From contig DATMBG010000022.1 in the NCBI GenBank assembly GCA_035559535.1, positions 1 through 64,000 on the forward strand: a stretch of DNA of 64,000 nucleotides, in the 5' to 3' direction. This DNA comes from Candidatus Limnocylindrales bacterium. Its GTDB lineage: Bacteria; Moduliflexota; Moduliflexia; Moduliflexales; JAUQPW01. Below, piece by piece: positions 9,728-13,742 of the stretch. Position numbers and translations under genes: made by a program. The notes under the pieces are model-generated. The model did not search any database. It was given only the letters and a program-made list of their open reading frames with translations, and was not told where the DNA came from. Position 1 is the stretch's first letter, and each line of letters starts with the position of its first letter.

Positions 9728-10489
9728 TTATTTAACCCCTCGCCGGCCAGCCAAAACTCCTTCTATAATTGTTGCCATTTGATGAGGATCTGCAAAGTTA
9801 AGGGGTATTGTTTCCGTTCGTAAGGGCTCAAGCTTTTTCTGGGTTTCAATGGCCAATAAGCGCTGCTTCTGTTCTAGACGTTTAGCTTCTATTTCCCTCT
9901 GAAACGTAGCGTGGGATGCTATCCGCAGGATATTCCTTTCTATCTCTACGGCTAAACCATGAAGCTTGAGGATAACATCCAGGGCCTGATCCCAAGGTAC
10001 ATTGATCAGCCTGACCGTCACGCGACCCCTGACTTCGGGATGTAAAACCAGATTAAGGTTGTTGATTTCCGCAATAGCACGGAAAACATCCCGTATGTCC
10101 GCATCTTTGAAATCAAGGGTAATAGGTTGGCCACGATATTTAGCTTCTTCGCCGGTTTGAGGAATTCGAATAGAAGGAACCGGTGCAGATTGAATCATTT
10201 CTATATCTGTCTTCTCAGAGGGCTTATCTCCTGAGGTAAGAACTTTGGCTGGGAGAGTTAACCCCAGAGGTTCACCTTGAGCAGGGTTACTTTCAGAAGG
10301 TCTGGTTTTTAGAGTGGGAAGTTCATTTTCAACTGGACTTCTGATTTTAACGGACTTAGCAGCCTTTTGTTGAGCAACAACCTCAAAACTTTTAATAGCT
10401 CCCTTAGATCTGGCACAACCGTTGAGAACAACCAGAACAACGAGGCCGGTAAGAATAAATGAAACATATCTGGCAGGATAATCACTCAT
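9728..10489 (-). CDS. Lipoprotein with PilQ-like secretin N0 (STN) domain, lacking the secretin pore domain
   Basis: Lipobox VLNGC; YRGQPITLDFKDADIRDVFRAIAE...VTVRLINVPWDQALDVIL is the PilQ N0 signature; the ORF ends early in N1. Confidence 0.75.
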   Translation of the reverse strand: MSDYPARYVSFILTGLVVLVVLNGCARSKGAIKSFEVVAQQKAAKSVKIRSPVENELPTLKTRPSESNPAQGEPLGLTLPAKVLTSGDKPSEKTDIEMIQSAPVPSIRIPQTGEEAKYRGQPITLDFKDADIRDVFRAIAEINNLNLVLHPEVRGRVTVRLINVPWDQALDVILKLHGLAVEIERNILRIASHATFQREIEAKRLEQKQRLLAIETQKKLEPLRTETIPLNFADPHQMATIIEGVLAGRRGVK

Positions 10490-10798
10490 TCATTGTGGAG
10501 TAAACCCGCCGATAAGCATCGGGGGATAATCCTGGAATCTCGCCTTACAAGATTCGCTCCCCAAGAAAAAATCTCCCCTTAGCTTATCCAACTTACTATT
10601 TTTATTGAATTTCAACCCCTTATAAATTTTCCTTTATCTACCTTCTGAATAACTTATAAAGTTTCTACTGTCAAGTACAGTTACGATAGACTTGCATAAG
10701 TCCGGATAGGGAATATATTTATCCTATTATTCCATAAAGTTTTCCAAAAATGCAGCTTTATAAAGCTTAATCGGCTTAATAGATTTTGTTCAATAGAA

Positions 10799-12577
10799 AT
10801 GTTCGCGGCTGAATTTCTTGCGACCACCCTGGCCCTTATTGGTATTATTATTCTGGTGGCGGCCTTGTTGTCCGGGCTGACTGAGCGGAGCGGTCTACCC
10901 CAGGTAGTAATCTTTCTGATCTTAGGGGCCTCTATTGGGCCGGCGGGTTTAGACTTATTGAACCTTACCTTGAATTCACCGGAATTACGCGTGATTGCAA
11001 CGCTTAGCCTGGTACTGGTCTTGTTTACCGATGCCATTACCCTGGATATCCATGAAATAAAAACCCATCGGGCCCTGGCGTTCCTGGTTTTGGGACCCGG
11101 AACGTTGTTATCGGCGGCTCTGATTGCCTTCGCCGGCTGGGAATTGCTTGGCTTAACACCTGCCGCAGCCACCATTCTTGGCGCTGCGCTGGCTTCTACG
11201 GATCCTGTATTACTTCGGGGGTTTTTGCATCGCCGGGATCTTCCCAATGCAGTTCGCCTGGCGTTAAAGCTGGAGAGTGGTTTAAACGACGTTGTGCTCT
11301 TACCGATTGTGCTTGTGGCGATGGTCTTTATTAACCCAGAAGCCACCCTTCATGCCATCTATTGGGCCCGTCTGGGTCTCGATCTTTTCGTATTAGGACC
11401 GGGTGCCGGTGTTGCTGTAGGATTATTGGCCGTGGCGGCACTTGATTTAATAAGGCGACGGATCGGAGTACGACGCGATTATGAGTCCCTCTACTCATTG
11501 GGGGTAGCATTTACTGCTTATGCCGCTGCGGAAGCAGTTCATGGAAGTGGTTTCCTGGCCGCATTTGCTGCCGGAATGACCATTATTGTATTAGACGTCG
11601 AGCTTTGTGATTGCTTCCTGGAATACGGCGAAACCACGGCTGAAATGGCCTTACTTTTCACCTTTGTATTGTTCGGTAGTTCGCTGATCTGGACCGGTTT
11701 TACCGTACTTAATGGAACCATGCTACTCTTTGTGATGATTGCCCTGTTGGGAAGACCGGCGATCTTCCTGATTTTACTGGCCCGTACAGGTTTGGATGGG
11801 TGGGGACGGTTTCTAACTTCCTGGTTTGGGCCGCGTGGACTTAGTTCTTTATTGATCGTTTTACTGCCTGTCTTTGCCGGACTACCGGAAAGCGAAAGAC
11901 TTTTCAGGATCTGCTGCCTGGTAGTCCTGGCGTCGATCTTACTCCATACAGTTTCCTTCATGATGCTAAACCAGGGTTCCCATCGGGCAAAACCCAAACC
12001 AACTGTTGCCGTTAAAACCGGTCAGCCCGAGCCATTGCCTGGTCCATCTCCTGTTATAAAGGAACCCATTTCCTCTGTTACCTCTGAAAACAGGTCTATT
12101 CTGAATCCTCTTCCCTCCAACGATGCAACCCTATTTACCGATTCCGTAACACCGATAATTTCCGTTGATTCCAATAATTATCCCCGTGCTGATACAAGCG
12201 GATCAACCCCTTCGGACCGCATCTCTCTTGAAGACCTCCGTCAACTCTGGCGACTCGGTGCGCCGGTGATCCTCCTCGATGTCCGAACTGAACGGACTTA
12301 TAGAGATAGTCCTTACCAGGCCCAAGGTGCTATACGAATGCCTCCGGACCATGCTGTGGAACGAGCAATTGAACTTGGCTTACCACGCCATGCCTGGTTG
12401 GTCGCCTACTGTGCTTGACGTGGCGAAGCGACCAGTGCCCGGGTGGCACGGGAACTTCGACAGGCAGGCTGGCCTTATGCTCGTAGTCTGATCGGTGGAT
12501 GGGAGGCCTGGCAGGTGGCCGGTTTACCTGTGGAACCCAAAGCGGATTCAAATCGAGAAGAAAGTAAGGTAGAGTAA
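10799..12577 (+). CDS. CPA1 (NhaP-type) cation:proton antiporter fused to a C-terminal rhodanese domain; probable selenoprotein (Sec at TGA 12416-12418)
   Basis: CPA1 motifs LASTDPV and LESGLND. The rhodanese domain starts RISLEDL...ILLDVR. After YCA-TGA the frame continues RGEATSARVARELRQAGWPYARSLIGGWEAWQVAGLPVEPK...KVE to TAA at 12575-12577 (592 aa in total). Confidence 0.8.
12435..12449 (+). promoter_or_regulatory. Putative bacterial SECIS hairpin
   Basis: GTGCC-CGGGT-GGCAC perfect 5-bp stem; the loop begins 21 nt after the UGA and has G in its second position. Confidence 0.55.
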
Positions 12578-12723
12578 ATGGGGATGACAAAAAGCGTAAA
12601 TGGGTATTTATTATAAAGGAAATAACCCTGCACCCATTAAAATAGAAAATAAACGGCAAAGGCCTTAATACGTGGGGTGATAGGACAAAAACTAAAACTG
12701 TGATCAAAAGGTAGGAGGAAATT

Positions 12724-13149
12724 ATGAAACGTAAAGCATCGGCCATCTGGAAAGGCAGCCTTAAGGAGGGTAAAGGAACTATCTCAACCGATAGTAGAGT
12801 CTTATCCGATACCCCTTATTCTTTCAGTACCCGTTTTGAAAATGGTATCGGGACAAATCCTGAAGAACTCATTGCGGCAGCCCATGCAGGCTGTTTTTCC
12901 ATGGCTCTCTCGGCTCAACTGGGAGAAGCAGGGATGGTCGCACAAAGCATCCATACCACTGCTACGGTTACGCTGGAAAAACTTGAAACCGGGTTTACTA
13001 TCACGGCGGTTCATCTCGATGTAACGGCTCAGATTCCAGGTGCTGATCGGGCTGCCTTTGAAAAAGCAGCCCATAAAGCTAAAGAGGGATGTCCGGTCTC
13101 CCGGGTTTTGAATGCAAAAATTACCATGGACGCAAAGCTAGAGACTTAA
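12724..13149 (+). CDS. osmC: OsmC family peroxiredoxin
   Basis: [29 protein letters not shown] and AKEGCPVSR motifs with both catalytic Cys. Confidence 0.92.
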
Positions 13150-13274
13150 AAATCTGGGGTTTTATCTCATTTCTGATCGGATAAAACTTATCAGGATAAA
13201 GGAAGTATGGAGAGATAAAAATCCTGGGATGAATTTTATCTCAATCTTATCCCTGACAAGGAGGAAGAGAAGAT

Positions 13275-13742
13275 ATGATCACATTTATTGTAAATGGAAA
13301 AGAACAAACCGTAGAGGTTATTCCTGGTACCCCTTTATTGTGGGTGCTGCGAGATAATCTCGGCTTAACCGGCACCAAATTTGGCTGTGGCATGGCCCAA
13401 TGTGGAGCCTGTACGGTACACCTGGATGGAAATGCCATCCGTTCCTGTGTGACGCCTATAGAAGCCGTCTCTGGGAAAAAAGTTACCACCATTGAAGGAC
13501 TGTCCCCGGATACCAGTCATCCTTTACAAAAAGCCTGGATTGCTCAAGACGTACCCCAATGTGGCTACTGCCAATCCGGCCAGATCATGGCGGCAGCCGC
13601 CCTGCTGGCCCAAAATCCGAATCCTACCGATGCCGATATCGATGAGGCCATGTCCGGGAACATCTGTCGCTGTGGCACTTATCAACGAATTCGAAGTGCC
13701 ATTCATCAAGCGGCCAAGATGATGAAGGAAGGAGGTCAATAA
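13275..13742 (+). CDS. iorA: Isoquinoline 1-oxidoreductase alpha-type (2Fe-2S) subunit
   Basis: [25 protein letters not shown] and NICRCGTY iron-sulfur motifs. Confidence 0.88.

Follow-up and report, generated by a model that had tools for sequence, protein, structure and literature searches.

An in-frame UGA as a probable selenocysteine codon in a NhaP-type antiporter fused to a rhodanese domain

Our analysis concerns the gene at positions 10799 to 12577 (+) of contig DATMBG010000022.1 from a Candidatus Limnocylindrales bacterium, of which the first 64,000 nucleotides were studied (referred to here as the window). The comparative data make it very probable that this gene encodes a full-length selenoprotein, in which a membrane domain of the CPA1/NhaP antiporter type is joined by a linker to a rhodanese domain and in which the in-frame UGA at codon 540 is a selenocysteine (Sec) codon. 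An initial annotation of this DNA had proposed just such a 592-residue fusion, and its proposal is now supported by the Sec machinery of the genome, the conservation of TGA among homologs, a conserved RNA hairpin, and the co-occurrence of TGA forms with selA. The UGA would be decoded by the genome's own SelA/SelB/SelD/tRNA-Sec system, directed by a hairpin 16 nt past the codon that lies inside the codons of the helix following the active site.

The ATG at 10799 opens an open reading frame (ORF) of 539 codons, which ends with the residues ...HAWLVAYCA and is closed by the TGA at 12416-12418 (+). Past this codon, the frame stays open over 52 sense codons (RGEATSARVARELRQAGWPYARSLIGGWEAWQVAGLPVEPKADSNREESKVE) and reaches a TAA at 12575-12577 (+), predicted from the frame to be the true stop codon, so that the readthrough product has 592 residues with U at position 540. 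Searched against Pfam, this product matched Na_H_Exchanger (PF00999) over residues 20-387 (E 4.6e-35; 121.6 bits against a cut-off of 26.2) and Rhodanese (PF00581) over residues 485-572 (27.0 bits against a cut-off of 22.2). Since the latter match spans the TGA, the codon lies inside a domain. The earlier observations that the ORF ends at ...LVAYCA-TGA within a rhodanese fold and that 52 further sense codons complete that domain were both borne out, and the coordinates given for the gene were exact.

Among 40 related genomes searched, just one other belongs to the genus, and it has an ortholog of the gene. This ortholog is 91% identical and carries a single TGA at the same place; its DNA around that codon is 95% identical, and both the frame and the TAA stop are kept. 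Seven genomes of the same order but of other genera gave distant matches to plain NhaP proteins or none at all. By Nei-Gojobori counts between the gene and its same-genus ortholog, the ratio of nonsynonymous to synonymous substitution rates (dN/dS) is 0.19 downstream of the TGA (10 synonymous, 7 nonsynonymous). The corresponding values are 0.11 for the membrane domain, 0.05 for the portion of the rhodanese domain that precedes the TGA, and 0.71 for the linker. The tail behind the TGA is therefore under purifying selection.

The codon is not peculiar to one strain or genus. We defined homologous loci as the best 80 of 377 relatives in species-representative genomes, and at the Sec column of these 80 loci there are 77 TGA, 2 TGT, and 1 TGC codons, with 41 to 71 sense codons following the column in all 79 loci that are not cut by a contig end. 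The TGA forms among them bear 10 phylum labels, assigned in the records or by the tree tool, namely, Acidobacteriota, Chloroflexota, Binatota, Gemmatimonadota, Thermodesulfobacteriota, Myxococcota, Verrucomicrobiota, Armatimonadota, Nitrospinota, and Eiseniibacteriota. Those of the Acidobacteriota include many Pyrinomonadaceae as well as Pyrinomonas methylaliphatogenes K22 (L120), a named strain and not a metagenome bin, whose genome has selA as well. The three Cys forms of this set (L050, L057, and L101) come from Gammaproteobacteria and Manganitrophaceae. Each of the comparisons for which the initial annotation had called came out on the side of recoding: homologs have either TGA or a Cys codon exactly at this column, the sequence downstream is conserved and selected, and the TGA is shared with another species of the genus and with most of the wider set.

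Predicted proteins show the same two states. A predicted-protein collection gave nine matches, four of which are full length with Cys at the same alignment column (...FCACPND...; P0004-P0007, one of them from Candidatus Manganitrophus) and five of which end at the Sec column, namely, the gene's own call (P0002), three ending in ...YCA, and one partial sequence ending in ...AYRT. The membrane domain by itself was also used to search 1.84 billion cluster representatives, of which the best 150 were taken. Thirty of these reach the site: 22 are gene calls ending at the C-x that precedes the column, Cys is present in 7, and the last one has Thr. The other representatives are fragments short of the site or plain NhaP proteins. 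As the initial annotation had anticipated, standard gene calling truncates the protein. Public gene calls of this kind stop 53 residues short, so the records of a membrane-protein family with at least 10 phylum labels lack the active-site residue and the last third of the C-terminal domain. Two site variants were seen besides: in P0109, the Sec/Cys column is occupied by Thr (YCATPREATS), and P0009, the sequence ending in ...AYRT, is without the vicinal Cys. These two would not support the same C-x-U chemistry.

The source genome (5.6 Mb in 58 contigs, 95.8% complete) contains the whole decoding set on which the proposal depends, with every component above its curated cut-off: a tRNA-Sec (74.5 bits against a cut-off of 47, also called SeC(tca) by ARAGORN), selA (622 bits), selB (409 bits), and selD (389 bits). 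The selD gene of this genome (G000:C29:76668-77594, +; locus L018) has an in-frame TGA of its own at locus position 1528, in the context CGG-TGA-AAKL, followed by a 7-bp hairpin whose GGU loop lies 21 to 23 nt 3' of the TGA, a distance similar to that in the antiporter gene. Across the family, selA scored above its cut-off in all seven TGA-form genomes tested (L120, L060, L049, L084, L107, L046, and L067) versus none of the three Cys-form genomes.

Downstream of the UGA, we found a candidate bacterial Sec insertion sequence (SECIS), a stem-loop with a G/U apical loop. In a gap-free alignment of 60 nt around the TGA in 78 TGA forms, RNAalifold predicted a single 5-bp hairpin with the consensus GCGCC-CGKGU-GGCGC, which is paired in 78 of 78 sequences with no broken pair. 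In the window gene, the core hairpin GUGCC-CGGGU-GGCAC occupies 12435-12449 (+), within the codons for ATSARVA, beginning 16 nt past the TGA; its loop, CGGGU, lies at 22 to 26 nt, inside the 16 to 37 nt between UGA and loop that Zhang and Gladyshev reportedly gave as a distance rule in 2005. Single-sequence folds extend it to 12424-12459 (+) by a lower stem, CGAAG/CUUCG, which is variable across the family alignment. Compensatory changes affect three of the five core pairs. One pair has UA in place of CG in the window gene, its ortholog, and L103; a second has AU in place of GC in the ortholog, at the cost of two amino acid replacements (A to T and A to V); and a third has UA in place of CG in L047. 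Nine wobble changes are also present. When the stem is lengthened by two outer pairs, pairing holds in 92.5% of cells, compared with at most 54% when the partners are slid against each other. Third-codon positions have an entropy of 0 to 0.24 bits within the stem versus 1.0 to 1.9 bits at most flanking third positions, and these frozen silent sites point to a constraint on the RNA beyond that imposed by the protein alone. Two of the Cys forms keep only two of the five pairs. A scan of the whole window against Rfam at gathering thresholds gave no matches, which says nothing either way about a SECIS element.

The recoded position is also the one at which a rhodanese carries its catalytic residue. 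The rhodanese domain (residues 473-583; 12215-12547, +) was recognized by its Pfam profile, by PDB sequence matches to 6mxv, 3k9r, and 2wlr, and by an alpha/beta fold modeled by AlphaFold2 (AF2) with a pLDDT of about 90. In phmmer alignments to solved structures, the segment ...AYCA-U-RGEATSA aligns with ...YFY-C-GGGFRSA in both domains of 6mxv_A, with U540 (12416-12418, +) opposite the Cys that opens the CGGGFRS active-site loop and C538 (TGT at 12410-12412, +), the vicinal Cys of the C-x-U motif, two residues earlier and invariant in our 28-row protein alignment. Rhodaneses use the Cys at the start of this loop as their catalytic residue. The loop that contains U540 in the AF2 model connects a strand (residues 533-537) to a helix (residues 544-555). 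By this alignment, the predicted Sec540 is in the place of the catalytic Cys, in agreement with the earlier assignment of the TGA to the second Cys of a CxC(P)xE motif.

Relatives of the domain occur in the same genome and its sister without any transporter. A standalone rhodanese of 138 residues with a signal peptide lies outside the window (G000:C55:34719-35039, +; locus L038, 1408..1824), reads YCS-TGA-PDEATSARVAREL, and scores 182.4 bits against the NCBIfam model NF041203. The sister genome has an ortholog of this gene and, in addition, a second, cytoplasmic-looking standalone form with YCR-TGA-PNEGSSA, which scores 110 bits. All three standalone C-x-TGA paralogs have the same hairpin in the same register (GUGCC-CGGGU-GGCAC in L038). 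The (L)YC-x-U motif of NF041203 is present as AYCAU in the window gene and as YCSU and YCRU in the paralogs, which also gave weak matches to NF045694.

Several observations weigh against the Sec assignment or limit what supports it. NF041203 is the best rhodanese-type NCBIfam match of the window protein, but it scores 81.8 bits over residues 473-581, below its equivalog cut-off of 115 bits. One Cys form, L101 (Manganitrophaceae, TGT), keeps all five pairs of the hairpin with a different sequence (CCGUU...GGCGG), so the pairing is not exclusive to TGA forms; this hairpin could be the relic of a lost Sec codon or due to chance. The single-sequence hairpin is no more stable than shuffled sequences (z -0.18; 85 of 200 shuffles fold equally well), and the support for it is comparative only. 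Even that covariation comes from few and related sequences (five double-change cells in the core), the shuffle control is not a probability, and part of the stem conservation may reflect protein constraint, since the codons under the stem are strongly conserved. In choosing the 80 loci, likeness to a Sec-form query was the measure, with the other 297 relatives outside the count, and the Cys-form genomes without selA are incomplete metagenome bins, one of only 1.7 Mb. Finally, no RNA run containing the gene was found among the listed sequencing runs.

With these reservations in mind, we considered what else the TGA could be. A nonsense mutation, an assembly error, or a lesion in a pseudogene, any of which would leave a product of 539 residues, might be thought of because the gene calls P0002, P0003, P0008, and P0010 stop at the column and because the single-sequence fold is so ordinary. 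Such an explanation would have to account for the same codon recurring in 77 of the 80 assemblies, which are independent and represent many phyla, and it does not fit the conserved downstream frame, stop codon, and selection. Moreover, the contig of a possible source sequencing run is identical across the TGA site; a contig of a second run ends at 12387, before the TGA, and two short run contigs, whose match is confined to the SECIS segment, come from different rhodanese genes. To the extent that comparative data allow, this explanation is refuted, and we give it a negligible probability. Insertion of one of the standard amino acids (Trp, Cys, or Arg) at UGA-540, through a near-cognate tRNA or an altered code, would agree with the conserved downstream frame, as conservation alone does not name the inserted residue. 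However, TGA is the ordinary terminator in 38 of the 79 complete loci, Cys occupies the column in homologs without TGA, the hairpin is conserved at the right distance, and, in the genomes tested, selA accompanies TGA forms and was not found with Cys forms; together these make a standard amino acid very improbable. It is also conceivable that decoding of UGA-540 is partial, yielding both a 539-residue antiporter whose rhodanese domain is broken and the full selenoprotein in a ratio that is set by selenium and constitutes the regulatory output. Sec decoding is known to compete with termination in bacteria, and termination at this UGA, which precedes the last third of the domain, would leave an unfolded C terminus on an intact transporter. 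Yet nothing in the data favors a functional truncated form, and the selection downstream of the TGA, together with the Cys forms (7 of the 30 representatives that reach the site), marks the full-length protein as the selected product, so we judge a dual-product switch to be rather improbable. A full-length product with Sec at position 540 is the reading we carry forward.

The membrane part of this product has the features of a CPA1 exchanger. Residues 20-387 (10856-11959, +) are modeled by AF2 as 13 helices, two of them unwound (mean pLDDT 75.9 and pTM 0.72 for the model), and the best Foldseek match is PaNhaP (4cz8_B; E 2.7e-11; TM score 0.68 on the target), followed by MjNhaP1 and then SLC9C1, SOS1, NHE1, and KefC. 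The motif T134-D135-P136 (11198-11206, +) marks the break of unwound helix 5, as G344-P345-R346-G347 (11828-11839, +) does for unwound helix 12, both seen as helix breaks in the DSSP assignment of the model, and the ND motif N163-D164 (11285-11290, +) lies in helix 6 and occurs in nearly all cluster representatives covering the site. These motifs are invariant in the 28-row alignment, including T134, D135, N163, D164, and R346, the T-D, N-D, and Arg residues of helices 5, 6, and 12 that we take, from NhaP structures, to form the ion site. Since the TDP, ND, and GPRG motifs are invariant, cation/proton exchange is probably kept. All NCBIfam equivalogs for K+/H+ and Na+/H+ antiporters scored below their cut-offs on the window protein. 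The archaeal CPA1 proteins PaNhaP and MjNhaP1 (4cz8 and 4czb) share with it the 13-helix fold, the TDP and GPRG breaks of the unwound helices, and the ND of helix 6, but they are only about 20% identical and lack a C-terminal domain; a further point of difference is the segment LDVELCDCF of the window protein.

This segment, which contains C270-D271-C272 (11606-11614, +) at the cytoplasmic start of helix 10, is invariant in the alignment and, as judged from the sequences compared, marks the rhodanese-fused subfamily. LC[DESQ]CF is found in 81 of the best 150 representatives, and those without it include most plain NhaP proteins of 30 to 35% identity. A CxC at the helix-10 site was also seen in the rhodanese-less NhaP proteins P0093, P0104, P0105, P0140, P0147, and P0152, which are about 30 to 33% identical to the window protein (e.g., LCSC, ICPC, and VCGC), so the CxC is not strictly tied to the rhodanese fusion. 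The count of Lys and Arg residues, 19 inside versus 2 outside, supports an N-out, C-in topology, which places the rhodanese domain in the cytoplasm. The linker that tethers it (residues 398-472; 11990-12214, +) is poorly conserved and varies in length among homologs; its residues 401-470 have a pLDDT below 50, are predicted to be disordered, and evolve fast, as the dN/dS given above indicates.

What such a domain might do for an antiporter can be approached by analogy. KefC responds to glutathione and to electrophile adducts of glutathione and is in this respect a relative gated by thiol chemistry. Together with KefC (8bxg), the Foldseek matches SOS1 (7y3e and 8iwo) and SLC9C1 (8pd9) combine a NhaP/NHE-like membrane domain with a tethered cytoplasmic domain; their regulatory domains are of the KTN, CNBD-like, or VSD type and contain no Sec, so the window protein resembles them by layout only. 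Because a long-tethered cytoplasmic domain is the usual layout of a regulator in the antiporter superfamily, the leading functional reading, which we hold at a little under even confidence, is that the rhodanese domain, for which the initial annotation had proposed a selenol/thiol sensor role, may act as a redox- or sulfane-sulfur-responsive regulator of exchange. The C-x-U pair could form a selenenyl-sulfide or carry sulfane sulfur; the Sec/Cys pair would then be the responsive switch, and the tethered domain would regulate ion/proton exchange from the cytoplasmic face, possibly with C270-x-C272. A more specific version, in which C538-x-U540 and C270-x-C272 form a selenol/thiol relay that, by selenenyl-sulfide or persulfide exchange, locks and releases the elevator movement of the antiporter, seems to us unlikely. 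If it were true, oxidants or sulfane sulfur would gate exchange and cytoplasmic pH, both would depend on the selenium supply, and the protein would be the first case of selenium-dependent redox gating among CPA antiporters, one that is common in soil Acidobacteriota, Chloroflexota, and Binatota. Our neighborhood analysis found no conserved neighbor gene that would favor a regulatory mechanism.

Accepting the recoding, the domain might instead be a working catalytic or binding site, either a membrane-tethered sulfur/selenium transferase or a soft-metal site made up of C538/U540 and LDVELCDCF. Sec would then occupy the catalytic position of a fold known for sulfane-sulfur transfer, and the standalone relatives, one of them with a signal peptide, show that the domain exists without a transporter. 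The active-site loop has Glu in place of the usual basic residues, the membrane domain has an invariant D-x-E-x-C-D-C, and for a metal role there is the further point that a 2026 review, in the part that was available (PMC13188914), connects several predicted transporter proteins containing Sec with resistance to metals or metalloids. These points are set against the long disordered tether on a complete antiporter, with its regulatory counterparts in SLC9C1, SOS1, and KefC, against the absence of any sulfur-, selenium-, or metal-handling gene among conserved neighbors, and against the helix-10 CxC of some plain NhaP proteins that have no rhodanese domain. On balance, we consider a catalytic or binding role possible but somewhat unlikely, and we retain regulation of exchange as the leading reading. 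A predicted Sec at the catalytic site of an antiporter-tethered domain suggests a link between selenium/sulfur redox chemistry and ion/pH homeostasis.

The domain type itself is not new. A Sec-containing CxU rhodanese domain is catalogued as the predicted selenoprotein family NF041203 ("rhodanese_LYCAU, rhodanese-related (seleno)protein") in the accessible text of PMC13188914 and PMC9312934, which agrees with the remark of the initial annotation that Sec-containing rhodanese-like proteins exist in bacteria, and the available part of PMC13188914 credits the CxU rhodanese type to Zhang and Gladyshev (2005). The window protein shares with this family the domain, the C-x-U motif, the Sec position, and the hairpin register seen in the standalone L038; it differs in that NF041203 is modeled on a protein of about 126 residues, and L038 has a signal peptide, whereas here the domain is the cytoplasmic C terminus of a 13-helix antiporter. 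Predicted Sec-containing proteins linked to transport have likewise been listed, among them TsoB (a rhodanese/DsbD fusion, NF045694), YeeE/YedE, the SO_0444 Cu/Zn efflux protein, and an E1-E2 ATPase (PMC13188914, in its accessible portion). These resemble the window protein in having Sec in or next to a membrane transport protein, in the case of TsoB together with a rhodanese domain, but their membrane folds and motifs are others, and no CPA-family member is listed with them there. The word "antiporter" is absent from the text obtained of PMC13188914 and PMC9312934, neither of which lists, in that text, a CPA-family ion transporter among selenoproteins. A full-text literature search, judged by titles and the beginnings of abstracts, returned no paper on an antiporter-rhodanese (NhaP) selenoprotein fusion, and supplementary gene lists may hold members. 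The fusion of this domain type to a CPA1 antiporter thus appears undescribed in the literature searched, in keeping with the earlier statement that no Sec-containing CPA1 antiporter was known.

The evolution of the site was followed in a FastTree phylogeny of 98 rows, to which four plain NhaP proteins were added and which was rooted for drawing only; the program gave long-branch warnings. The Cys forms of Gammaproteobacteria and Manganitrophaceae, as well as P0004, fall among Sec forms, three deep Cys forms sit on long branches, and the starred branches force at least four changes between Sec and Cys. Well-supported groups contain mixed phylum labels, such as a pair of Chloroflexota and Gemmatimonadota at a support of 100 and Udaeobacter within Binatia, which suggests horizontal transfer or binning errors. 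Because the SECIS-like hairpin lies inside the coding sequence of the domain, the domain, its Sec codon, and the hairpin can move as one cassette, and such movement would explain why fused and standalone forms have the hairpin in common.

The gene neighborhood was examined by clustering the ORFs in the 1.5-kb flanks of 81 loci. The largest cluster comprised 14 loci, mostly from close relatives, and no operon partner emerged among these flanks. In the window, the neighbors are unrelated by family and comprise an OsmC-like gene, a 2Fe-2S/molybdopterin oxidoreductase, and an AcrB/HlyD pair. A scan of 10450-13300 for promoters and terminators gave counts within the range of shuffled sequences and predicted no terminator between the antiporter-rhodanese gene and the OsmC gene. 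The latter, an OsmC-like peroxiredoxin gene at 12724-13149 (+), begins 147 nt downstream on the same strand and is not recurrent in the other 80 loci. Upstream, a divergent ORF at 9728-10489 (-) encodes 253 residues that, with no secretin C-domain, consist of the N0/STN domains of a GspD-like secretin only.

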